Under the pieces are notes generated by a model. That model saw only the letters and a list, made by a program, of their open reading frames with translations. It had not been told where the DNA came from and did not search any database. A program made the position numbers and the translations under genes. Below are positions 1-18,900 of a DNA stretch of 64,000 nt, in pieces. Origin of the DNA: Cirrosporium novae-zelandiae (lineage: Eukaryota); assembly GCA_026023565.1 (NCBI GenBank), contig JAPETS010000021.1, positions 248,001 to 312,000 of the forward strand, in the 5' to 3' direction. Positions within the stretch are counted from its first letter, which is position 1. Each line of letters opens with the position of its first letter.

Positions 1-439
1 CTCTCTCAAATTCGCGCGGGCTGATTCCTGGGCATTCACCTGACTCGATATGCTTTACGAGACTAGATGCGAGAACAAATCCCTTGCCGCAGTTATTGCC
101 CTTGCAAACAATATTCTGGCCTGTTCGATGCATCTAAGTAGATGGTTAGCAGCTGAGCTTTGATAAATGAATGGAATGTCAATATACTTGTTTGATATGC
201 CGGTTTTTTCCTCCTTCAGATTTGAAGTCACAGCCACAATGTTCGCAGACGATATGCTTTTTGTCGGTCATCTGTACTTTGTGGATACGGAGAGAGTCTT
301 CATCGTCAAAATCCAAGTCACAAGCCTTACAATAATCATGTTCTGGAGCGCTGTGCTTGTGACGCTGAAGAGCACCTAGGCTCTCGAACTTGGCTTGGCA
401 GTTTTTGAAAGTGCATGGGATGTAGTTTTTAGAATACAT
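1..439 (-). CDS. C2H2 zinc-finger protein, 5' part (runs off window start; one intron about 133-187)
   Basis: ATG at 439. Repeated CxxC..H motifs (CTFKNC..HKH, CKAC..H, CEHC..H). After a GT..CTAAC..TAG intron the frame continues MHRTGQNIVCKGNNCGKGFVLASSLVKHIESGECP. Confidence 0.8.
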
Positions 440-1537: not shown

Positions 1538-2125
1538 TCAGAAACGTGAGTATGGGAGCCTTATATCATATTAGCGGGTGAGGAAATTTCGAAGGCCAAA
1601 TCATTGAACATACCACTTTCCACGGAGAGTAATGACAGCCCAGTTGTTACCATCTTTGTCAGTCTCTTTCTCGACTTTAGTGGAGAAAGATATTGCACTC
1701 ATGATACCATCGCCAAACTTTTCATTGAGAATTGCTTTATATGCATACCCGTAGTTCTGAATGATTTCGTATAGTCTATAGATTAAAGGTTCTTTTGGTG
1801 GCATATCCATAGCTCGGCCGCGATCAGGAAACCCACTCAACTGTTGGATCAAAGTCGATTTATCAATGCCAAGGACACGCGAAAGATTCTCGATATCATC
1901 CATGGATGCCTGAGCCTGCCCATAAAATATGGCTGCTATTGCTACTTCATCGCGGTTCAGCTCCTTAGCAATATCTTCAAATGATAGGTTATTTCTTGCT
2001 TTGCCTTCGAAAAGGGTGGTATATGAGGCCGGGAGCCTAGGAGTAAGAGATGACTGTAACGATTAGCAGATGATATCTTCGAGTGATGGTGAAAACAGCC
2101 ATACATCAAATGTGCACAAAGACAT
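1538..2125 (-). CDS. CYN1: Cyanate hydratase (cyanase), 3 exons
   Basis: Spliced [15 protein letters not shown]...[15 protein letters not shown]...[13 protein letters not shown]...[23 protein letters not shown] is the cyanase signature. Confidence 0.95.
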
Positions 2126-2574: not shown

Positions 2575-3306
2575 GCAATGGGCTTCCAGGCTCTAGATTC
2601 TCTAGCTAATGGCTATCGCACAGCATTTCCGCCGGCAAATCATATTTACTAATTCTGTTATGCCTTTTTAGGTGCTTTCTATAATTGCCTACTTAGATAG
2701 GTAGTATAACAAAACAATTTTCATTGTCCGATACTAGTTTTTTTTGTCACAAGGTGAAAAAATATTATGAAGGCGATATGCGTGATGATGTCCAATTATC
2801 GTTTTTGGTTGTTGTTTAGTATTATCCTTAATAGCAAAACTTGGGATGAAGGACAACTTATCCCCCGTCTTTATTTTGGAGGCGTACTAGTCGTGGCGCT
2901 TTTCTTTGACTAATAAGAACAATATCAAATAAAGCAATACCAGTGTGAATATAATCTAGCTCCCACCTATTGGGCCAATTTACAGGAATTTTTCTATCTC
3001 GACATCTACTTGAAGGATTAGTTTTAATTAAAGGGAAGCACTTAGATAAAGAAAGTACTAATGCCTAGCCCCCTTCTTTATTCAGAGCTTTAAATTCCAT
3101 TATCTCAGCATCCCATATGTCTAATTTGGCATTATTCAGTGAAATCACCCCTGGCCGTTGAAGAATTATAAATTGACCTTGTTTTCCTTCCTTCATTCCA
3201 TCTTTCTCTCCATTCTACGCTCGCTATCACCAACCACACTTTCAATATCCAACTTCAAACACAATCTTTAAACTCTCCCTTTTCAAACCAAACCAAGCTT
3301 ATCAAA

Positions 3307-3426
3307 ATGGCTAGAGGCTCAAACGGTCCTGGCGGGGGTTGTACTGTCATGCGTGGCCCTGGCGGGGGTTGCACTGTCATGCGTGGAGGCTCGAACGGCC
3401 CTGGTGGTGGTTGTACAGTTATGTAG
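3307..3426 (+). CDS. a-factor-like (CaaX) mating pheromone precursor with three repeats, 39 aa
   Basis: MARGSNGPGGGCTVMRGPGGGCTVMRGGSNGPGGGCTVM*. Terminal CaaX CTVM plus two internal copies; repeats differ at synonymous sites (TGT/TGC, ACT/ACA, GTC/GTT). Good start context (ATCAAAATGG), C/T-rich leader and TATAAA near 3167. Confidence 0.9.
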   Translation: MARGSNGPGGGCTVMRGPGGGCTVMRGGSNGPGGGCTVM

Positions 3427-4306
3427 GCCGCCATAGGACATTGATAGGCGGTTATTGATGTACGGCTTTCGACATCTCTTTCTACAACAATACTCTATTG
3501 CACGTCCATTGGTCCATTACTTTTCATTGAGTAAAGAAATGTGGCCGTATGGTGAGCCTGCCCGACATCCCCACAAAATACGAACCGATCTTACAAACAT
3601 CAAGATGTCTTTCGAAGGCAAATACTAGTACGAGTTTCCATTTTATAGGGCCATTATGTTAACATTACGGACCTTTTAATTCATTTCTTGATTTGGGATA
3701 TTTGTTGATATTTACGCTGGACTCCACCTGTTTCTGTCTAGTTGTTTCGTGACAGAAACAGCGGCGGCTACGCTGTTATTTCTCGGCTATGAATGAGAAA
3801 ATAGATAGGAGTTATTGAAAGTTATAAAAATATATATAACTAGCTATTCTAATGCTCAGAGACTACATTCTTTAGCTTTCTATTGAGCTTCTGTAAGTAA
3901 AAGATATATCACTTGATGCTCTCGCAACCATATTCCAACTGACTTAATTAAGCTGTTACTATAAAAAATAATGTATAGTCTAGAAAATAATTCAGCATAT
4001 TCTATGTCCTCTTCTCAATATTATGAATAACTAGTGTAACTTTAATAGATCTTTGATAAATGATAAAAGTCAAAGTTTGCATGGGCATTAGGTAGTAGAT
4101 AACTAATATCATTTTTAGCTCATGGTCATAGGCTCCTGTATAGATACTCCAACAACCGGCCCGCAGAAGCACCACCCCTAACAGACTAATAAGCATCTCG
4201 AACGTAGGAATATCTTAAGATGATTTAGGAAAGTACTACATCTCGATTATGGATTCTAACAGGGAATAGCAACGTTTCCTACTCACTCCCCTTTATTATT
4301 TACATT

Positions 4307-6307
4307 CTATGCCTGATTAGTATCGTTGTTCATAAATCTGGCAACCGCCTCAGTAACAATAGATAGCCGCTCCTCTATAATCAGTACATCTCCTAACCCT
4401 TGAGCCAAGTCGTCATTTCCTCCAATCTGCTTCAGCTCCCCGCCCTCCTTGAATCCTTCTTTGAGTCTCCCTACCGCCTCGCCTAATGGTTGTAGAAATA
4501 ACCCAGCAACATCATAATCTCGATGAACATTTTGTATATTTAGTCTTTCCCGGATATCTGAACGTGCTATGATGAGGTAGTAAAAATTAAGGGCTGAAAG
4601 GTAGAACGATATGTTTGTCCTCAATCTTTGCCATGTGCAGGGGAGAGGAACTTGTAAAAGATTCGTGCGGAGAGACGGAAAAATTGCCGGAAGCAGGAGC
4701 GTTAAGGGAAGTTGGGTGGCGAAGATGGAGGTTTCGGAATGCTTGCAGATTGACAGCTGATCGGTCAAGGCCGAGACTGCAGCTAGAATGGCGGTTTTGA
4801 GCCAGGACACTGCACTTGATTTGAGGGCAGGATGGTCCATATTTTCAAGTATATGACGAATAAAAGAAAGGACCACAAAATCAGAGGGATGGGATAAAAG
4901 TATTAGAGTTGTTAGGGTATGAATATGGCCGCGAAGGGATGGGGACCTAGTATTGATACAAAGCATGGAAAGGGTTGACAGGTATTCTAGAAATACCTCA
5001 TCACTGACAGGAGCCCCAATTTTATTATTTTTCGACCACTGAAGGCCTAGATAAAGAATTCCATCAATAAGAGGCTCTGGTCCGATGCCAAAATCAGACT
5101 GCGATGATTTACCCACATAATTCTTCACGATAGCAGCATGATGTGGGAATATAGAGCAGATATCCGAGTTGCAAGACTGAGAATCAAAGAGAATATGGGA
5201 AGACTCTTGTGCTGCAAAGAGATAAAGAGAACCATAGTATGAGAGGCAGACGTCAGAAGGTGCTGAGGGTAATTCATCGCTCGAAAGATCATGTTCAGAG
5301 AAGTCTTCTTCAGGATTTTGGATTACGGCAAGGAGTTCATCTGACGAGATTCCGAGATCGCAAGCCAAGGCCTACTAGTGTTATCATCCGTCACTGGCAC
5401 TTAGTACCACAGCGATACTTACAGTAAAATTTCTCATGAGAGAATCTCGACTTCTCAGATCATCATCATCTATAAATCTTTGCGAGTATGTCTTTCGGAC
5501 AGGAATGACTCTTCTTGGCTCAAATATTTCAAAAGCCCTACTTGCCCATGCCAATCCAGGCACGTCATCCTTAGAAGCTAGGGATCTAAGATAAGTTTCA
5601 AGTACAAACGTAAGAAAGGCTTGTATCAAGCGTTTCTGTAGAGCGGCCTCTTCATCTGATGCAAATTTATGTTGGGCCTCTGGGTCGGGAGTGGCAGTAT
5701 CATAAGAGGAGGCTGCTGCTTCCATATAAATATTGATTCTGCGGGGCGGCAAAACTGGTCTTTGGAGACCAGAAATGTGCTTGATGAAATCAAATACCTT
5801 GATGGTTGTTTCAAGAGAGATGAGATTGTTGTAGCAGCGAAGAACGGCTTGAAGACTAGTAGATAGGAAGCGGGTAGGGTGTTTCGTCTTTATGCGAGGA
5901 TGAAGGACCTCTAGCATTGATAGGAGAGCCGTAAATTGTAAAATATGAAGAGGTGACTGAGAAGATGGAAGATTCTCATGACAATTTGAAGAAGCATTTG
6001 ACTCTGGTTTATCTTGTATAGTGATAGCAATCTCCACCAAGGATTCAGTGACCTTGAGGATAACTTCTCGTGGATTCCCAAATCTGGCTACGTCCTGCAA
6101 GCACTCATGCGATTCTGGAAGAAGAGGCAGCAGCAAATGTACGAGATCCCAACCGATGTTGTTAGTCAAGGTGGTATCCTGTAAGACCTTGTGCAACGTT
6201 GGAAGCTGTGCAGCATTAAGTTGATATTCAAGTATTGTCAAGTATGTCATATAGTCGGTGGTTGGAGGTAAAGCCAGCAGAAGAGGGCTCTCAGAATTTT
6301 CATCCAT
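4307..6307 (-). CDS. YBP1/YBP2-like (DUF1760, glomulin/ALF4-like) protein, 2 exons
   Basis: ORFs 5384-6307 and 4307-5368 joined by an intron at about 5372-5422 (GTAAGT..TAG). N-terminal LPPTTDYMTYLTILEY..IGWDLV..CLQDVARFGNPREVILKV is typical of the family. Confidence 0.8.
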
Positions 6308-6870: not shown

Positions 6871-9800
6871 ATGGCCGCATCCTTTCAACACCAAACGGAG
6901 CGGCAACCAGCTTCGCACGGCTTTATCTCCAATCCTAATTCCAACATCGTCTCTCCTACGTCGCAAGCCGTGCATAGAAGATCTTATCAGGCATGCGATC
7001 CGTGCCGTCGGCGGAAGGTGAAATGTGACCTAGGAAGTGCGCTCTCCTCATGCTTCATTATTCTCCTCGCCACCGCTTTCCTTTAGAACACTGAAGATAT
7101 ACCATTTTATACTAATAAATTGATTACTTACAGGCGTCGATAATCCAAGGCCGCCTCCTTGTTCAAGGTGCCGTCGAGAGAGCAAGAAATGCGAATTTTC
7201 GGCAACACGAAGGAAGCGAAAGCTCTCTGAGGATGAAGTCGATGGCCAGGAACACAGCTTTGCCCGCAGTTATGGAGATGAAAATACCTGGCTAGGTAAT
7301 ACACGCAATTCAGCAGAAAATGAAAAGTTATTACGACAATCGCCAAATGGATCCATAGCGTCCTCTATTTCGAGGACACCCGGTAGCCACACCACGGCCG
7401 ATCGGGTCCTTCCTACTATTGAACGTGGCGATGGGAGAGAACAACAGCTCCTTGATAACTCTGCTGCTGCACTGTTTACCTCTAGTGTCAACAACCCACA
7501 TGATGCGTTACATGTCTTAGTCGAAGCTGCTGGGCAAACTGAGAGCTTGAACCGCAACGAGGCTGAGTCCGTTCGTCTTCACCAAAGCTCTTCAGCTCAA
7601 GGAAAATCCTCTCAGGCCCCAATTGCAAGTCAGCATTCAGGTCTTACCCAGATCTTCAATGCCCACGGTGTCATTGATCCTGCAATAACATCGCCTACGA
7701 ACACTAAACAAGAAGGCTCCGATACTGAGATTATTGAATATCAGAATTCTTTGAAGGCCTGGGCCAAGCTGAGGTTTGTTAGAGCAGGTTGGTTCACGGG
7801 ACAAGAAGCCATTGCCTACGTTCAGTAGTGTGTACTTTCCTGACCAAACCGTAATTTGGTACTAATCAAACCTAATACTAGCTATTATGACCACCTGGCT
7901 CCTCTGACTCCAGTCGCAATTCCGGACTATCGTTTACCATCGACGCATGCCAAGTTGTTGCATGATGAGCCTGTGTTAACAATAACCATACTAACTCTAG
8001 CATCGAGGTACATGGGCCTTGAAGGTCGTGCATCCCTCTCGAGGCAATATGCTATTCACGAAAAACTTTGGGCCTACCTTAGAGGTATGATTGAACGATT
8101 GTTCTGGGGCCAAGAAGAATTCACGATTGGATCCTATGGTGTCTTGATTCCCAATACAGATCCATCGTCACATTATACAACGAAAAGAGCGAGAAGGGCG
8201 AGCCTACGGACATTAGGCACCATTGAGGCATTACTTCTTCTAACTGACTGGCATCCAAGGGCACTTCATTTCCCTCCATCTGATGACACTGGCGCTTTAG
8301 TAGAAGAGGAGTCCTACTCTGTTAGGGAATCCGAAGGCAGCTCAAACCCTCCTAGCCGACAGGAAGGAATATCGGGCAGAGCAGGCAGGGTAGCCTTTTC
8401 TAGTTGGCTGGAGCCTGCTTGGAGATCTGATCGTATGTGCTGGATGCTCCTAGGCAATGCCTACACTCTGTCCTTTGAACTTGGAGTGTTCGATAGGATC
8501 TTTGGCACTACAGCCTATGCTTGGGATTCTTATCAACAAAATGATCCTCACTCGTACGGTCATCGAGCCAGTAACCTTCAGAAGCTCCTAGTAGTTTACA
8601 TTACTCAGACAAGTGGAAGACTCGGAATTAATTCCATGCTAAATTTTAGCGACTGTGTGAAGCAATTAACGGAACGACCATTGACATTGTCTTCAGATCA
8701 GTGGTACCTGCATCAGCATGGATCGTCACCCCAGGATCGAATTCTTCAATTCTGGATGGACATTGCCGCAATTATGCATGACAGCAATGCCATGCTCTTC
8801 ACGCCTCGGGAAAAGACAAGGGAGATAATCAAGAGCGGCGAATACCTTGCGCTCCTCGAGAAATTTCAAGCCCCCCTTCGAAGCTTTAGCGCCCGTCTTG
8901 ATGAAGTTGATAGTAAGTGTCCCATTAATGTCCGAAAATTTTGATCTAACATGGATTAGTTTCCAAGTATATGAAACACATACTGAGGATTGAGTATAAT
9001 TATACCCGTATGGCATTTTTTCACACCTCCTTTAGAGTTATATTAACACTTCTTCAGGATTATACATTAACTCGCTTGCACTGCAAGCGGTGGTTGAGCG
9101 ATGGACCAACATTCCCAAAAGTACATATCGCAAAACTGAGGATGACTCCGAGGCCGGAACTCAGGACATTCACTCGCGAATTCTTCCAGGCAGTCCTGTT
9201 TCCCCAATCATGTTACGTGAACTCTACCGTGGCAATGAAGAATATATTCAACAGGTTGTCGATGCCTGTCGTGGTTTGATAACTACTGTGGTGAACGACT
9301 TACGACCGGGAGATTTCTTAAGGCATGCTCCTGTGAGGACATATTTTAGGATTATTTCAGGGGCTATGTTTCTTTTAAAGGTATCAATGGCTCTACTCTC
9401 TAGAACTGGATCAACTTTAGCCTCGTCATGACTAACTTGACTTGTTAGACCTTCGCTGTTGGAGCCCCCGCAAATTCCGTTCATAAGTCTCTCGACCTTC
9501 TTGATGCCTTAGTTGATGCCCTCGAGAACTGTGTTGTCGATGACGTCCACCTCTCCGGCCGCATTGCCGATCTCCTGCGATTTCTAACTTCAAGTATTCG
9601 TCCCCGCTTTATTCGCTATGTGACGGCGACAGCGAATCAAAGTCGAAGCCGAACTCCTCTCCCAGCATCGGCAGACACGGAAAATCGTCTCATGAATGGT
9701 TATGGGAATTCTACTAGACAAACCGGCCAGCACGGAGGAATAGATCTATACCGTAGCGAACAAAACCAAGGCCCAATTAGGCAATACCCCGTTGAGATAA

Positions 9801-10204
9801 CTGAAGGGAGTTACTTCTATAGCTCTCCCCTTCATTCTCGAGGTATCAAGCAACCCAGCTCATCCGCCTCATCCTCCTTACCACATGTATCCCAATTGCC
9901 GCCTCATCATCCTGTCTCCTTTATGCCACCGCCTTTCGACGATACCTGTGTCGTTCAGCCTTCATTGCACCCCGCTGAACACCCCCTGAATTCCCCCAAT
10001 CAAAGTGAGGGAAATACTAATGCGAGTTTGCTCGATTGGACAGCTCTTCCATTAGATCTCTTTTTCAATAACCCAGAAGTTAATGTCGACCAAGGATTTG
10101 GCGGAATTGGTCCTACGGTCGGTGAGTATGATATGTTAGAAGTTATGTTAGGGCATGAACATTTTGGTCAGAAATGGGAAGGTGGGACTGCTTATAATTG
10201 CTAA
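6871..10204 (+). CDS. Zn(II)2Cys6 transcription factor, ARO80-like, multi-exon
   Basis: Intron-split cluster RRSYQACDPCRRRKVKCDLG/..DNPRPPPCSRCRRESKKCEFSATRRKRK. Downstream motifs RFVRAGWFT, LRTLGTIEALLLLTDWHPRALHFPP, WLEPAWRSDRMCWMLL and LRHAPVRTYFRI. Confidence 0.88.
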
Positions 10205-10922
10205 ATGGGGTAAGTTGTGACCTTACGATCTAGGAGTACCGGGGTATTGTCTACGTAATCCTAGAATACTAATGTAGCCAACCTACTTTCAAATTAAAAT
10301 GAATAGTGTTTAGCTAATCACTACATATAGAGGGTTCTGTCGAAATCTCATAAGCACTAGCTCCGGATTAAATCATTTTATCAAAATCAGAATGTGACGA
10401 CTTCGCGTATAAATGTCGTTTAAGGGGAAGAGTGAGGCGGCAGATAAAAATTGGTGGGAAATAGAGAGTCAAAGAAGAAGTGAAGAAACTGAACTTAAAA
10501 GGATATGTGCACACTTTGCAACATGCAGTGTGTTAGGTGTGATCGGTTTTATGATATTTTAATCTTTAAGAACACCTTCTTAATGTTGCTTCGTATAAGA
10601 AGCTGCTGCTAGCGCATGAACACGTGCCACTTGTAGAACCTAAACGTAGCCACATTCTAGAACTACCTAAATGGTGTAGATGTACAGTACATAGCTCTTG
10701 ATAGCCCATGATAATATCCTATTAGTATGTTAATAGGGGTTCTAAAAAGACGAATTTAGAAGGAATGTTTCAATATTTGATATACAGAAGAATACTGTTA
10801 GCGTAAACTAGAAAGAAAATATCTCACTTATTTCAGCTGGGCCCAAAAGTTCAGAATGCCCATATGTTAGCTCTCATAGCATGGCAGTGGTAAGGCCTGC
10901 AGTTATAGCCTTAGATCAGTAA

Positions 10923-12150
10923 TTACTTTGGTCGTCGTGTATTTATGCACTGGTGCGCTGAATTTCCGAGACCTCCACTGTCTTTTGTTTTCTCCTTTTC
11001 TTGTCTATAAAGTGTTCTTCGCTTCTTGGAATCTAGATCCTTGCCTTTCGGTTTGACCATAGAAATATTACGGCCACCATTTCTTTTTAGCTCCATCTTT
11101 TTAACCTTTCTCCATTCTATTTCGGCGGTTAAAAGCTCTCTGTTCTTCAGAGCAGAAGCATCAAATTCTCGTTTCAGTTTCTTCCCTTTGTCCAACTTCG
11201 TTATTTCTTTCTGCCCTCGTTTTTGCACTCGGGCTCTAGCTTTTCGAGTAGCTCTAATGATAAGTTGTTCTTCGCACTTGCGGGTTTCTTTCTTTTCTCG
11301 TCGCAAATCAACCTCAACAGCAAGGTTTTCGTGCTCTACCCCAGTATTTTCTATGCTATGTGAAAGACTATTATTTTGTTTAGTAACGGTACTTTGGAGT
11401 GTCAATTCACTACGAGTAAGGACAATATAGTCTTTAGAAGGTTTGGATAGTGAGTTAGGTACACTAATAGCAATGCGATTTAGATCTATAACAAATGACT
11501 GTTCGGATTTTTCCTATCATGTGGCATCAACTTCTTCTAGGGCTATTGTTCCAGTGGGAGCAATTTAGGCTCCATCATTAATATTCAATTGGTAAGATTT
11601 GGATGTGTTGGTGTTCTAATAAGCAGACTCAGCGAGTATCATATAAATTCTCGAGAAGCATCTCTTGTAGCAATCACTACTTCCTTCGCTCTTTATCATC
11701 TTCGAAATTTCTCTCTACGATTTATGGGGTTCGTCGTGTACGGCTTTTTATATCCTCTAAGGAGCCTAGATAATGTCGAACAACCAATAGATAGTATTAA
11801 AAGGCCTATACAATACTGGGAGAGTATATGAACTTAGACTAGGAATTAAATGTCCTGACTTTTGGCCATGGCATGTTCAAGGTATACCTACCCTCTTATG
11901 CAGCTCCTTTGAAGCTTCTTCAAACAAATCTCTAGGACAAATTTTCCCCTGTGATATTTTTATAACCGTTTAAACTGACGTTGTTTAGAATGTAGTTTGG
12001 TTGTATACAAAAAGTGCTTGGCCTAGAGAATAAGCCATATTTAGATAACGCAAGGCCTTGCTAAAAGAAGCAAATTTCGGCATGAGATACCACTCTCTTT
12101 ATAGCTCGTGCGTTCGGGGATAGGGCACCTTAAATAGGAGTATAATATGG
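10923..12150 (-). pseudogene. Decayed coding-like relic (gene or transposon remnant) at the MAT border
   Basis: A 160-codon K/R/E-rich open frame without an ATG start (10923-11405) is preceded by coding-looking sequence broken by many stops, in AT/TpA-rich surroundings. No family recognised. Confidence 0.3.
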
Positions 12151-12633
12151 ATAAATGAAGTGTAGATAGATAGGTACTGGACAATGCAAGGAGATTACCT
12201 AAGTCTTTCTACGAAGTTTGACAGCAATGTCTGACAGGTTGGCTCCTTGATCCTACAGGTAGCGATAGACACAAAAAATCACCACTTTTTGATGGACTAA
12301 GTTAAGTTGTATTTAGTGTTAGGCGAATACGCTATATGTATTGTATGTATTGGCCTATGTTGGAACAGTGAAGATGATTCAGAGAGCATGAGACATCAAA
12401 GAACATAATTGGATGGTATTGGCTGATTCTGCTATAGGTAATTCTAATTTAACTGAAAGCCACATTCCTGTATTTGCATTCCAGGGTATCCAGGCACATT
12501 CCTAACACATAAGATCACCCATGCGCCCATTTTGACTTCTGGATACCGCCCGTAGTATACAACCAACTCGCCAAACTCGAAGGAAAAACTAATATCATCT
12601 CTCTAGGGAGGACGGACTTGACGACTAAAGTGG

Positions 12634-13960
12634 TTAAAATAATGTGAGAAGATTGACATCCCAAGTATCCTCAAGAGGGACCACCTCATCTGAATCTGTG
12701 CGAAGAAATTCACTATCGAAGAGGTCTAGGTTCAATGGAGAAAGAGCTCGCCCGGCAACATCTTCTGGATTCAGGAATTTCTCAAAGAGTTCGTTGTCCT
12801 CGGTATCTGCAGCAAAGACAGCATCTTCTGCCTGTTTCCAATCGATAGCGGATGTATCTATCATTGATTCCACAATCTGTTCTTCACTTGGGCCACTCAA
12901 AGGAAGAAAATTGGGAATATTCATTCTTCGGTAATACTGATTGGTTGCATTGATAAAGCTCTGCTGATTTCCGAAGTTGGAAATGTGAGGAGGTTGAATC
13001 AAGGAAGGTGGAGGGGGTGGCTGAGTACTGGCAGCAGCAGCTTCTTGTTTTTTTGTTGCGAAAGCGAAGTTGTGACAGTTGGAGAGATCTTGAAGCTCTG
13101 CATCAACAAGATCAAGGTCGTCTGACTGGACAGGAAGATTGATAGCCATGGACTTATTATCCACAGGCTGGGTGAAGTTAAGAGAGTCAATATCTTCGGT
13201 CCCTGAGATCTGAGTAGTTCCCACTTGTCCTTTGGCTGGTGCAGTTGTATCTCTAGAATCTTTTGCATCCGTTGCAGCCGCAGCTATAGCTGCAAGTTTC
13301 CTGGCAGTCATACGTCGTTTCTTTTCTGAGGGCTTGCGAGGGCAGTACTGGTACTGAGGATGGTCAATGAGGTGTTTGGCTTTGAGATCCCTGGCTTGTC
13401 TCTCAAACATCTGCTTCACGGGGAGGGATTCATTTCTCCACTGTTGACCTAAAATGATCGCTAATATGATATTAGTATATTCCAATGTTCACAAAAGGAC
13501 ATATTTCTTACATATCTGGTTGTTATGAAGTCCAGGGTTGTTTTTCTTAACTTGGGGGTGGTGATGCTGTCTGTACAGAATGAAGGCATTTGGAGGACGA
13601 GGGATCTTGGTGGTGCCAGCTCGTTTAGTCGTATATTTGATGGGACGGCCAAGAACAGCAGGACGCATCAAGCGAGTAGAACTAGAGCCAATATCATAGA
13701 CAACCAAAGGCTTGGCTTTAATCGCCATTCTAGTAATGTTAGTGCCATGTAATAAGATATTTGAGATGCTCTTGTACATACTTGAATCGAGATTCGAGTA
13801 CTCGCAAACCTTCAACACCAATGAGATCCTTGATGTCGTCTGGGATAATGATCTCCTCAAGGCCGTCTTTAAACGCACCAACAGCGATGCTCCAAACTTG
13901 GTCAACAAGCTCACTTGGGCTGCTAGCCTCAGGTGCGAAAGAAGAAGAGGAACTGTTCAT
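12634..13960 (-). CDS. MAT1-2-1: Mating-type HMG-box transcription factor, 3 exons (13960-13782, 13729-13512, 13460-12634), about 407 aa
   Basis: HMG box KIPRPPNAFILYRQHHHPQVKKNNPGLHNNQIS/IILGQQWRNE...HPQYQYCPRKPSEKKRR, with the diagnostic intron inside the Ser codon (T|CG). Adjacent to SLA2. Confidence 0.96.
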
Positions 13961-14335
13961 CCTGAGTGTATGATAGTGATAAGAAAAGTTTGAAAGACTT
14001 TGATCAGTTGGTAAGTGAAGTAGCTGTGATGAATCTTGATGTGTGGTTGTTGAAAGTCTTGGTTATGAGAATGAAGTTGAATGAATGAGTTCTGGGTGAA
14101 GTTTTCTGCTTGGGTTAGGAAAATGGGGAGGTTGGTCCTTTGTGTTGTGGAAGATCGAGAGTGCAGACAACACCAAAGGGCTACCAGTCAATGCGAGCTT
14201 AGTCTTAAATTTCTTTTACCGGGTTGAGTTCCCTCTTTATCTACCCAAACAATTATTTCTCAAGCTAGCTAGCCTCGACCAGAACTATCTTTGCGTTCAA
14301 AAAACATTATCTTTCTGTTGCTGAATACCGCAGAG

Positions 14336-15120
14336 ATGGGGGTGGTCAAATCTCAGAAGAGCAAATCCGTGCGTGAGGAGAAAGCAAGCAAAAGAACAAT
14401 CTACTTTGCTAAAAGACTGAAAAAGATCTCCAAGCTCACTGTCGGAAAAGTCGATGTCCCAAGTCTGAAGAATACAGAGAGCGGATCTATTTCGATGGAA
14501 CGAACAATTATCTTGCCAGCTGATAAAACACTGGTGCCAACTCACTTGAGTGATCTTAATGATCTATACAAGACTGAACAGGAACTGGCAACTGTGCTTA
14601 TGAGCTGCGCCGATACTGTGCTCCGCCTGCACAAACCAGCATACACTGATTCCGAAATTAAAGAGCTTTGTACGCTGTATCGCTTAGCTATTCGAGTATT
14701 GCTTCAAGAGTAAGCAGCAACCCCGAAGAGCACTGCCTTCACTGACAACCAATTAGACAGACCAACTCCTTCACTGCCGATCAAGGTTTGACAGAACGGA
14801 GGCAAGGCTTAGATCTTGGCCCTCGAACTGTGGAGCTATTTGAACAATTCTTCGCCAACTCGAAAAAACCCAATGCGGAGGAGCGAATCATGTTAGCCAT
14901 TGCTGGTGGTGTTAACTTAGGTCAAGTTGACCATTGGTGTAGGTGACTCCAGACCCCTTCAATAAACGCTTAGACTGACTTTTTCTAACATATAGTTGAT
15001 ATCAAAAACGAGAAAATGAGACCTGTATTTGCTATTAGAGCCAAAATTCGTGGTAATGGACCATGTGAGAGATATCTTCGCTTACAACGTATCCTATCAG
15101 CACGAAGCTTCGAGATATGA
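14336..15120 (+). CDS. MAT-idiomorph gene encoding a degenerate homeodomain protein, 3 exons (14336-14709, 14757-14938, 14996-15120), about 226 aa
   Basis: Introns GTAAGC..CTGAC..TAG (14710-14756) and GTAGGT..CTAAC..TAG (14939-14995) keep one frame. The product contains LGPRTVELFEQFFANSKKPNAEERIMLAIAGGVNLGQVDHWFDIKNEKMR with homeodomain spacing; the second intron splits the Phe codon of WF. Confidence 0.75.
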
Positions 15121-15908: not shown

Positions 15909-18900
15909 CTACTCCTCCCTGTAGGAAACCTTTCGCATCTCCCCAAGCCGCTTTCTTGCTAGCTCTAAATTGTTCTCTAATTGTAGGATCTCGACCTAGA
16001 AGTTATTAGCCTTAGGCCTTATAATGATAGGAAAGTGATAATAACAGACCTGCTGTTCCATCTCTCGCACTTTGAATTCATGCCCGCTGAGTTTGGTATA
16101 ATCCACTGCTTCTTCGCTGTCCTTATTTCTCTGGCTAATAATTTCCTGCACCTGACGGACCAAGCTCCGACAAGCAGCCGTTACAGCTTTGCTAGCAGAC
16201 TCTAACCGATCTTGTGTCTTGCTCATAAATGTAGCTTTCACCCTGCTAGCGGCTACCAACTGTGCAGTGGATGCAGCGACTTCGTTACTCGCGACTATCA
16301 GCTGCTCGGGACTATTACGTCCAGAAATAACACCGTCAGCTGTTTCAATTAAGGTATTCGTGGAAGTAGCAACAGCCTTGGCCGCACTGATTAGGCCTTC
16401 CGTCCATCGATTATTCTTTTTATAGAATGCGGTTCTAGATGAGCTACCTCGCCCTTCACGGACAATTTCTTGCTGGGAAGCTGTTGCTGCCTTGATCAAT
16501 TGTGCGATTGCATTCGTAACTGCAATCGCAGCCTCCAGGATGGAGTCATGTATCCGAAGTTCATAACTAGAATAGCCATCCCTCGGCTTCTTCTTGAGCT
16601 TACTTAACCGCTCTGCTGCTGCATCAATTGCATTGGCAGCATTTGTTAACTCTTGGTCAACCAGATCTCCGAGGTCACCCGCTGCGTTTGTAATTTTGCT
16701 ATGCGGAGCAAAGGCATCGGCAAGCTTAGATAACTTCTGCAAATTCATGAGAACTTCATGGTTGTTATTGATTACGACATCCGTCTTCTTCATGGGATCT
16801 AGCCCCTCTAGGCGAAAGGATTGAACACCCCTAAAGAAGTTCATGGTTGATTGAGCTGACTGTCTGGCCGCATTAATTAGCTGGTCGCCTTTCTTCTCGT
16901 CGGTGGCAAATCGGGTTAATCCTTTTGTATTACTTAGGACATCAGCTATGGATCCAGCAAACACATTGACCGTGCGAATGATCTCCGCATGCGTGCTATT
17001 GGGTCCATCTGCAATGAAATTGTTGTAAGCTGTAGCAAACTCGGTAGCACTACTTGAAGCCTTTTCGATTTGGGATAAGACATAGGCTGCAGAGGCATTT
17101 TGGTTTCCCGCTTGCATGGTTGAATCAAGTTCATATAGCGCATCGTCAACTCTCTGAACTCCACTCTGAAGAACCGAGTCGATGATGTCACTTATTTTCT
17201 GCACATTTTGGAGTAGAACCGAATCAATTTGCCCGTCGAGGGCTTTATCGGTATCTCCCTGAGATTGTTTGAGCTCCTCCACTTCTAGTAAGGCTTGGTC
17301 CATCCCTGATTTGTATATCTCGAGTTCTTCTTCTTTCTCTCTTAGAGCACGCTCAAGATCATCCCCATGCTCACCCTGTTTGATATGCATATCTTCAAGG
17401 GCTCGGGTTTTGTTGCGAAGTGCTTCCTCTAGATCAGCCATTTCGCGATTATATTTCGCTAGAAGATTGGACAATTCAGTCCCTTTCGAGCGTTCTGCAT
17501 TATCTGCTTTCTCTAATGCAAATCTAAGTTCTCGTTTGAGTTTTTCGACTTCTTCTTTGCTGCCTCCGGTTATTCTGTCCTTCTCGTGTAAAGCTTTGTC
17601 TCGTTCCCTGATCATGTCTGCCAGTTCTAAGTTCTTAGTTTTAATTTCTCTTTCTAGCTTCTCTTTCTTATCTATTGCTTCCTGGGCAGACGCTGCTTTG
17701 AGTTGTACAGACTTGAATTTCTGAAGCAACTCTAAGTGCTCATGTCGTAACTGAGAATAAAGCTTTGCTAGGGCTTCATACTTTGACCGCCAGGTATTGA
17801 GCTGCTCTTGTAGTGCACGTATTTGATCGTCTTTGGAAGAGTTCTGCTGAGCAAAGTTTGAATTTAGCTGCTCTAGTTGGGTTTCTAGGTCCTTCATTCT
17901 CCGATCATATTGTTGAAGAAGAAGCTGGTCTCGTTCGTACTGTGCACGAGCATTAAGATTCTCCTGCTCTAGCTCTGCGAGGCGCCCCTGAGTTTGTGCT
18001 TGATATTGTTCCCGCATCAATTGCTCTTGGGCGAGACGTTGTTGCTCGGCTTGAAGTCTTTGTTGGTCTTCAAATTGTCTTTGGGCTTGTTCCTGAGCTG
18101 CAAGCTGTTGGCGTTGCTGTTCTTCCCACTGCTGCTGTAGTCTACGCTGTTCAGCTTCAAATTCATCCTGTTGGCGGCGCTGTTCATTTTTCCAGAATTC
18201 GTTTATCGGCTCTGGATCTACAGACGGGGCTTGCGCCGGAGGAGGGGTTGGCTCTTTCTCGACTTCTTTAGCGGGTCTCTTGGGAAGGGCAGGCCGGTCT
18301 TCATCTTCTGCAAGAAGATTTGGGGGGTCTTGAGGCAGTCTTGGGACAGTAATAAGGCTGGTAAGGTATCGAAGATTGGAACATTCGTAATAAAATTTAA
18401 CTAGACGGTAATGCTGAGCATCGTATCGACCTCGTAATGGTTCTAAAGCTTCTTCATCACCGGTGGCTGAAGCCAATCAGAACATGGACGTAATGTGAGG
18501 AGGTTGGCTCTTACTTGTATGCATCGCTCTGAGCATGCTTGTGATGAACTTATAAATACCATAAGACTCCTGCACAAGCGGAACAAGAGCTGATATCCTG
18601 CATTCGTTACTATTTCCTCCTCGGAAATGAGAGAAAATAAGTTTTTGAAATGCATCGATCTGATCCTGTAAAGTCATAAGATCAGATATTGTCTCATAAC
18701 TATTATTCTTAGTTAGTTATAGCCTAGTTTTAAAGAAGAGCACTGGAACTTCACCCTTCGTTAGGGTCATTTATAGATTTAAGGCTGATATACTCCTCAT
18801 ACTCGAACAATCCTAGCTGTTTATCAGCACGTCTCATTAAATCGGGTGTGACCGTAGCTCACCATTAAATTCAGGGTGTTGTCGATGAAATGCCAGCTTC

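Follow-up and report, generated by a model that had tools for sequence, protein, structure and literature searches.

A candidate tandem-CaaX a-class pheromone precursor gene close to MAT1-2-1 in the Xylobotryomycete Cirrosporium novae-zelandiae

The tandem-CaaX design of pheromone precursors and single basic junctions between their units have already been published for Trichoderma HPP1, Huntiella and Microbotryum, and this architecture is not new. HPP1 of Trichoderma reesei and related precursors of Fusarium were defined in 2010 as the h-type, with three CaaX boxes (Schmoll et al.; PMC3068285). In the same report, three prenylated peptides per precursor were already proposed, and the question of how the internal CaaX units mature was posed (PMC3068285). 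The a-factor genes of Neurospora, Colletotrichum, Magnaporthe and Fusarium are described as adjoining the cyanase gene (PMC8661429; PMC3068285). As PMC10569646 summarized the field in 2023, the a-factor genes known from filamentous ascomycetes were all from Sordariomycetes. Since then, one candidate has been added in the Leotiomycetes and one in Aspergillus, and Cirrosporium adds a further class. For Aspergillus, Krappmann et al. reportedly described in 2025 (Curr Biol 35:2414) an a-factor-like pheromone of A. fumigatus, ppgB. Our literature search found no pheromone paper on the class Xylobotryomycetes or the genus Cirrosporium.

The window analyzed here is a stretch of 64,000 nucleotides from contig JAPETS010000021.1 of C. 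novae-zelandiae, which belongs to the class Xylobotryomycetes (NCBI taxonomy). The initial annotation had claimed a 39-aa ORF with three CaaX boxes, and this ORF was found as described and was absent from the protein collections searched. Its features are as follows.

3307..3426, + strand: ORF of the putative a-class pheromone precursor (P0001), 39 aa, stop TAG at 3424-3426
3313-3351, 3352-3381 and 3382-3423, + strand: the three precursor units, each with Arg at the front and CTVM at the end
3167..3173, + strand: putative TATA box, TATAAAT, with a pyrimidine-rich tract and a leader rich in A and C behind it

In the translation of 3307-3426, the CTVM boxes are at residues 12-15, 22-25 and 36-39 and the Arg residues at 3, 16 and 26. 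The start context of the ATG is good (CAAAATGG at 3303). Judged by eye, no hydrophobic leader or signal peptide is visible in the 39 residues, in agreement with the initial annotation. Short ORFs (<100 aa) ending in CaaX/CpaX are typical of the a-class, and this one ends in CTVM-stop; the alpha-class features of a signal peptide, KR-flanked repeats and a lack of CaaX were not found in it. Taken with the comparisons below, the 39-aa ORF very probably encodes the precursor of an a-class (farnesylated) mating pheromone in this Xylobotryomycete.

Similar to HPP1, the Cirrosporium precursor is small, lacks a signal sequence and carries three GC(S/T)VM copies, of which one is at the extreme C-terminus as in the h-type, and a normal alpha-factor gene is found elsewhere in both genomes (PMC3068285). 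Different from HPP1, in which Leu or Ile precedes the motif, the Cirrosporium ORF has Gly there, and GGCTVM fits the h-type consensus (L/I)GC(S/T)VM at 5 of 6 positions, failing at the first. HPP1 is described with dibasic sites, whereas none is found here and the Cirrosporium units abut directly. Moreover, hpp1 is not beside cyanase in the account given (PMC3068285), and the two fungi belong to different classes. The Cirrosporium precursor appears to work like an h-type precursor and is not filed here as an HPP1 orthologue. The multi-repeat a-factors of Huntiella also have tandem units that always start with Arg and a CpaX end, but their units are 12 aa long with another sequence, up to seven genes occur per genome compared with one in Cirrosporium, and the flanking genes encode tubulin and a nucleolar protein (PMC10182648). 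Tandem units with CaaX-like spacers and several mature peptides are also described for the red yeasts and Microbotryum (rhodotorucine A), which are Basidiomycetes and are likened here by architecture (PMC4675872). The single-CaaX a-factors of Sordariomycetes, such as mfa-1 of N. crassa, those of Colletotrichum and MF1-1 of Magnaporthe, share with the Cirrosporium precursor the cyanase neighbor, a terminal CaaX ending in Met and, in several cases, an Asn shortly before the Cys. However, as described they have one unit behind a Ser/Thr-rich pro-region, follow cyanase in the same orientation and possess a Gly-Tyr before the Cys, which the Cirrosporium precursor lacks. With the Leotiomycete BCIN_13g03330 family, whose members are reported as 45-64 aa long with a Ser/Thr-rich N-terminus, a Gly-Tyr motif and a single terminal CTVM-type box, only the CTVM end is shared (PMC10569646). 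What is new is the lineage, the presence of MAT1-2-1 nearby with a broken SLA2-MAT-APN2 order and two relatives found by a promoter motif (L039 and L041) that lack a terminal CaaX, implying that their internal units would be cut out.

A de novo repeat search recovered the three DNA copies of the unit, spaced 30 and 42 nt apart. The three units vary at 7 positions, all of them synonymous third-codon positions (P about 1e-4, with about 27% of random single changes expected to be synonymous), and units 1 and 2 differed at only 2 sites. The 39-codon ORF is under selection on the peptide. The initial annotation had called the repeat differences synonymous, which is correct for the substitutions but not overall, as unit length varies: Gly-Ser-Asn is present in units 1 and 3 only and absent from unit 2. 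In 184 kb of the contig, the pheromone ORF was the only short ATG ORF with at least two CaaX-like boxes and one of 3 that ended in CaaX. Block shuffling produced three boxes in 0 of 20 cases and two boxes in 1 of 20. In the genome, the ORF was a single match; the tandem CaaX pattern was elsewhere at control level (26 matches vs. 22), and the DNA pattern of a single CaaX plus stop was uninformative (156 matches vs. 107 in the control). Searches with the 39-aa peptide gave no Pfam family and no ESM Atlas match, and the exact sequence was not found in a collection of 15 billion proteins.

The genes on both sides of the ORF are listed below.

179..439, - strand: exon of a C2H2 zinc-finger gene
1613..2125, - strand: cyanase (cyanate hydratase), ATG at 2125, main exon 2053-1613, PF02560 (E 2.7e-31)
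4307..6307, - strand: YAP-binding/Alf4/glomulin gene (YBP2), PF08568, convergent with the pheromone ORF
6871..10204, + strand: Zn(2)-Cys(6) transcription factor, PF00172, between the pheromone gene and MAT1-2-1

The ATGs of the cyanase and pheromone genes are 1182 nt apart and divergent. A short-ORF scan beside cyanase in relatives, which the initial annotation had suggested, identified a small CaaX-type precursor at 11 of 48 fungal-looking loci among the 80 best of the 494 cyanase loci on metagenome contigs; the other 32 of the 80 (L082-L086, L088, and L090-L115), with 42-52% identity, were left out as taken to be non-fungal. Five loci (L056, L060, L067, L069, and L078) possessed a single-unit ORF ending in YCVVM downstream of cyanase on the same strand. 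L072 is a sixth locus of this type, its precursor being cut by the contig end. The cyanases of these six loci formed one clade, and their peptides resemble the Sordariomycete ones quoted in PMC3068285. At three further loci, a predicted spliced single-unit gene was found upstream of cyanase and divergent from it, with a phospholipase D (PLD) gene in between, and at two others three tandem units without a terminal box were located downstream of cyanase.

L038:30-229, L045:168-390 and L046:266-428, - strand: single-CaaX precursor genes past PLD, predicted with an intron
L039:2999-3142 and L041:7674-7799: precursors of three aromatic-rich units that lack a terminal CaaX

The cyanases of L038, L045, and L046 grouped with those of Lecanoromycetes (support 0.98). 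Between L045 and L046 the exons are kept and the intron differs; in L038, the last exon ends in PGYG-CTVM and an Arg closes the first exon. The nearest named cyanases to those of L039 and L041 were from Cladophialophora and Pyrenula (Chaetothyriomycetidae-like), and splicing close to the 3' end is possible in L041. A conserved 3' stretch of L039:3170-3250 and L041:7880-7930 reads GPEDVL-x-x-MPSRCL in one frame; it may belong to a C-terminal extension joined by splicing, to a second micro-ORF or to a conserved element of the UTR, and was not seen in the window. No candidate was found at 13 fungal loci that cover 2.7 kb or more on one side (L040, L047, L048, L053, L054, L055, L064, L065, L071, L075, L077, L079, and L080), of which L040, L047, and L048 were not extended past PLD, and the remaining scanned loci were short. 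In L040, positions 400-1100, where a pheromone gene would be expected directly after the motif site and PLD, are very AT-rich and repeat-like.

The C2H2 zinc-finger gene also follows cyanase in L038, L040, L047, L048, L054, L065, and L075. The PLD orthologue of C. novae-zelandiae is on another contig, C66, where neither a second pheromone gene nor the motif was found beside it. The pheromone locus in the window looks like an L038-type arrangement after loss of PLD. Similar to L038, L045, and L046, the cyanase and pheromone genes are divergent here, whereas they are in tandem at the Sordariomycete-type loci. This difference in orientation counts against the a-class identification, as do the 13 loci without a candidate and the six-residue Gly-rich peptide, which carries little specificity.

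A phmmer search of 1.84 billion representatives returned 11 matches, of which 9 were tandem PGGG-CaaX-K/R proteins (P0242-P0246 and P0248-P0251); the other two, P0247 and P0252, were dropped as unrelated repeat proteins. Four of the 9 (P0242, P0243, P0248, and P0250) are labelled as hypothetical proteins of Penicillium. Similar to the Cirrosporium precursor, to which they were 59-66% identical over the matched stretches, they contain x-PGGG-C-x-V-M units, and every internal box is followed by a basic residue. Different from it, they contain five or six units of mixed sequence with mostly Lys junctions, and their annotated C-termini, which come from predicted models, are not CaaX. They are probably related to A. 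fumigatus ppgB, of which they may be orthologs, and the ppgB paper may already describe the Penicillium family, its locus or its motif. The 9 tandem proteins are annotated as hypothetical, and in several of them an apparent intron donor is read through after the last unit.

The initial annotation had singled out the use of one Arg instead of KR between the units. The single Arg is present but is no peculiarity, as all 40 internal units counted in 12 related precursors (the 9 tandem proteins, the pheromone ORF, L039 and L041, with P0247 and P0252 excluded) are followed by Lys or Arg. The first units of L039 and L041, outside this count, are also followed by a basic residue.

The promoter of the pheromone ORF contains one copy of a motif that is common to the related loci.

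2918..2928, + strand: candidate MAT1-2-1 (HMG-box) site AACAATATCAA, 389 nt upstream of the ATG

The motif was first noticed in the window and in L038, L045, and L046, and its 8-mer GAACAATA was found in 4 of 5 held-out loci. The final pattern, RACAATAY(C/T/G)AA, which was widened after the 8-mer test with all nine promoters seen, is found in the 600 nt preceding all 9 precursors, including the Sordariomycete-type metagenome loci (shuffle P 0.001-0.011 each). Six of the nine promoters have 3-4 copies, compared with the single copy here. Two results do not depend on the widening of the pattern, namely those from loci picked by the motif and from the gene set of the genome itself. When four further loci were picked by the motif alone, a precursor was found downstream in 3 of them, L040 being the one without. 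In the 31.4-Mb genome, where RACAATAYYAA has 378 sites, the motif was found upstream of RAM1 (-201), the isoprenylcysteine methyltransferase gene (about -310) and STE2 (-550) and upstream of 0 of 11 other genes examined, i.e., two other prenyltransferases, RCE1, STE24, five M16 peptidases, STE3, and alpha-factor. A near-match at L203 (C52:949528), which is on the opposite strand and precedes the start of STE23 by about 200 nt, was not counted. The combination of a cyanase(-PLD) neighborhood and RACAATAYYAA is also a handle for mining and led to candidates on contigs that are lichen-fungus-like or Chaetothyriomycete-like.

The MAT1-2-1 site of F. graminearum is given as ATTGTT (PMC4559316), of which the AACAAT core of the motif is the complement. 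In Podospora, the MAT1-2-1 protein FPR1 is described as activating the lipopeptide pheromone gene, PRE2, RAM1 and the methyltransferase gene, with RCE1, STE24 and STE23 listed as not regulated by it; the account names the methyltransferase inconsistently and, in its part on these targets, gives no binding motif (PMC3125171). The motif-bearing genes of C. novae-zelandiae match this activated set. MAT1-2-1 may thus bind the AACAAT site and turn on the pheromone gene together with RAM1, the methyltransferase gene and STE2.

Both receptor genes, STE3 (on C1) and STE2, were found in the genome, as were homologs of RAM1, RCE1, STE24, ICMT, and an IDE-like STE23; STE6 was not picked out among 34 ABC-domain matches. 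An alpha-factor pattern search gave 296 matches in a loose version and 8 in a tighter one, of which 2 were inside a real gene:

C66:205497-205991, - strand: alpha-factor precursor (L178), 164 aa, three WC-x-RPGQ-x-C repeats

This precursor is canonical, with a leader and KR/RR-flanked repeats, and shares its contig with the relocated PLD. The identity of the 39-aa ORF as a multi-CaaX a-class precursor, which was proposed in the initial annotation, is thus backed by synteny, homologs, the promoter motif and a separate alpha-factor gene.

Two other readings of the ORF are to be weighed against this identity. The CTVM boxes could have arisen by chance in a short tandem repeat, or the ORF could be the by-product of an antisense 59-codon frame (3255-3434, minus strand), which shares third codon positions with it and would show much the same repeat pattern. 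However, the units read in the antisense frame differ by Ile/Met and Pro/Leu, the homologs fit the sense reading, none of the 20 shuffles gave three boxes, and the TATA box, start context and promoter motif all indicate the + strand, which makes it extremely improbable that the ORF is not a gene. Alternatively, the gene may encode a prenylated micro-peptide with a role other than attraction, such as self-signalling or development, or be a pheromone relic in a non-mating fungus. The Leotiomycete candidate ending in CTVM is reported to lack mating-type specificity, and a role in mating is doubted by the authors of that study (PMC10569646); moreover, the MAT region of C. novae-zelandiae is rearranged. 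Such a role is nevertheless improbable for a gene whose locus and promoter motif are the same as those of Sordariomycete-type a-factor genes, in a genome where RAM1, the methyltransferase gene and STE2 share the motif and the alpha-factor gene and both receptors are present.

As an a-class precursor, the peptide would be made in the cytosol. By analogy with the yeast pathway, Cys36 of the terminal unit would be farnesylated, TVM clipped and the Cys methylated, and the insulysin-family Ste23 would most likely cut Asn30|Gly31 to give GPGGGC(farnesyl)-OMe, Asn|X being the cut pattern described for yeast Axl1/Ste23 (bioRxiv 2021.09.28.462209). The terminal unit could be maturable by this yeast-type route alone. 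The two internal units would be freed by a cut at the Arg after each CTVM and then matured alike; a cut before the Arg exposes the CaaX at once, and one after it yields CTVM-R, which must be trimmed once more before it can be farnesylated. The lipopeptide would be exported by an ABC transporter and act on Ste3/PRE1 of a MAT1-1 partner. As the residue directly before GPGGGC is Asn in units 1 and 3 and Arg in unit 2, all three units could give the same hexapeptide. The initial annotation had proposed up to three lipopeptides through cleavage at M-R|G; three products are possible, but M-R|G is only one option, with Asn|X as an alternative, and an Asn|Gly cut together with a cut at Arg is likelier than Arg|Gly alone. 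On balance, we expect that one precursor yields up to three identical hexapeptides, and the internal units are somewhat probably productive; the hexapeptide itself is a more tentative choice for the mature form. Otherwise, only the terminal unit of the a-class precursor would be matured, units 1 and 2 being slippage duplications in a pro-region that is discarded after the Asn30|Gly31 cut. The canonical pathway is described as requiring a C-terminal CaaX (bioRxiv 2021.09.28.462209), the relatives L038, L045, L046, L056, L060, L067, L069, and L078 at the cyanase locus have a single unit, and the duplication may be recent, given the 2 sites at which units 1 and 2 differ. Maturation of the terminal unit only also keeps some room because the dibasic sites of HPP1 are dispensable, their mutation being reported not to abolish fertility (PMC3068285). 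However, it is a doubtful alternative in view of the substitutions, which are all synonymous with the internal units included, of the Lys or Arg after all 40 internal units, and of L039 and L041, from which a lipopeptide could be produced only via internal units as both lack a terminal CaaX box. The invariant basic residue and these two precursors argue that a cut at the basic junction exists. For the maturation of internal CaaX units, the 39-aa precursor is a minimal substrate, and L039 and L041 are natural controls without a terminal box.

Beyond the Zn(2)-Cys(6) gene, the window contains the following features.

10205..12633, no strand: AT-rich single-copy gap with 38-39% GC and a 196-codon frame without known family
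12634..13960, - strand: MAT1-2-1-type HMG-box gene, PF00505, start codon tentative
14273..14713, + strand: ORF divergent from MAT1-2-1, between MAT1-2-1 and SLA2
15996..18476, - strand: main exon of SLA2 (ANTH, I/LWEQ), transcribed towards MAT1-2-1

The HMG box is split by an intron (donor at 13511) at Pfam position 33/34, and we take the gene to be MAT1-2-1 from its position beside SLA2 and from its motif and intron features. The divergent ORF had no Pfam family, nor did 14336-14710 have an ESM Atlas match; it is possibly a lineage-specific MAT1-2 accessory gene. The stops of MAT1-2-1, which the initial annotation of the ORF does not mention, and of the pheromone gene are 9.2 kb apart with two genes between them. 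The gene order is pheromone, YBP2, Zn2Cys6, MAT1-2-1, SLA2, then after about 90 kb POL3, APN2, COX13, and APC5. APN2-COX13-APC5 is located at C43:353800-362000, about 92 kb away on the far side of SLA2, with the DNA polymerase delta gene on the 3' side of APN2. Given that SLA2 and APN2 are described as the usual MAT flanks (PMC10569646), the pheromone gene is outside the SLA2-APN2 interval and not inside the MAT idiomorph. The usual order would be regained by a single inversion, with the pheromone gene then about 100 kb from MAT, and the AT-rich gap is presumed to be a rearrangement breakpoint zone. For the alpha box of MAT1-1-1, the Pfam search, run without a positive control, gave 0 candidates, an alpha-box motif was at background level (41 vs. 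57), and no match was found in the 184 kb around MAT and APN2. As no MAT1-1-1 was found, the strain is probably MAT1-2 and the species heterothallic.

In all 8 named genomes present in both lists, the longest-contig value, which is given per 90% cluster, differed between cyanase or YBP2 and APN2. Contigs were longer than 140 kb in five of them (Candelina mexicana, Cladophialophora chaetospira, Usnea florida, Lecanora helva, and Acarospora aff. strigata), and the other three were too fragmented to count. The tight linkage of pheromone gene and MAT thus looks local to the Cirrosporium lineage. A narrow literature search found no report of a MAT-linked pheromone gene in filamentous ascomycetes. 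The proximity may be explained by gene shuffling within a chromosome without selection, or by mis-assembly. It is rather unlikely, by comparison, that an inversion brought the pheromone gene into a non-recombining MAT1-2 block in which regulator and pheromone make up a basidiomycete-style mating locus, with a family that also needs a cytosolic protease to free the internal CaaX boxes. Inheritance as a block with MAT1-2 holds if the rearrangement is mating-type-specific. The proximity of MAT1-2-1 is a lead on mating-locus evolution, for which one genome cannot take the case beyond gene shuffling.

A switching inversion of the Sclerotinia type was considered and is unsupported, since the two presumed breakpoint zones share no repeats and the left gap is single-copy. 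Between APN2 and COX13, a 1.7-kb element (C43:356.3-358.0 kb; L155:4319-6024) is bounded by 30-nt inverted ends (90%) and contains a degenerate frame that resembles a transposase.
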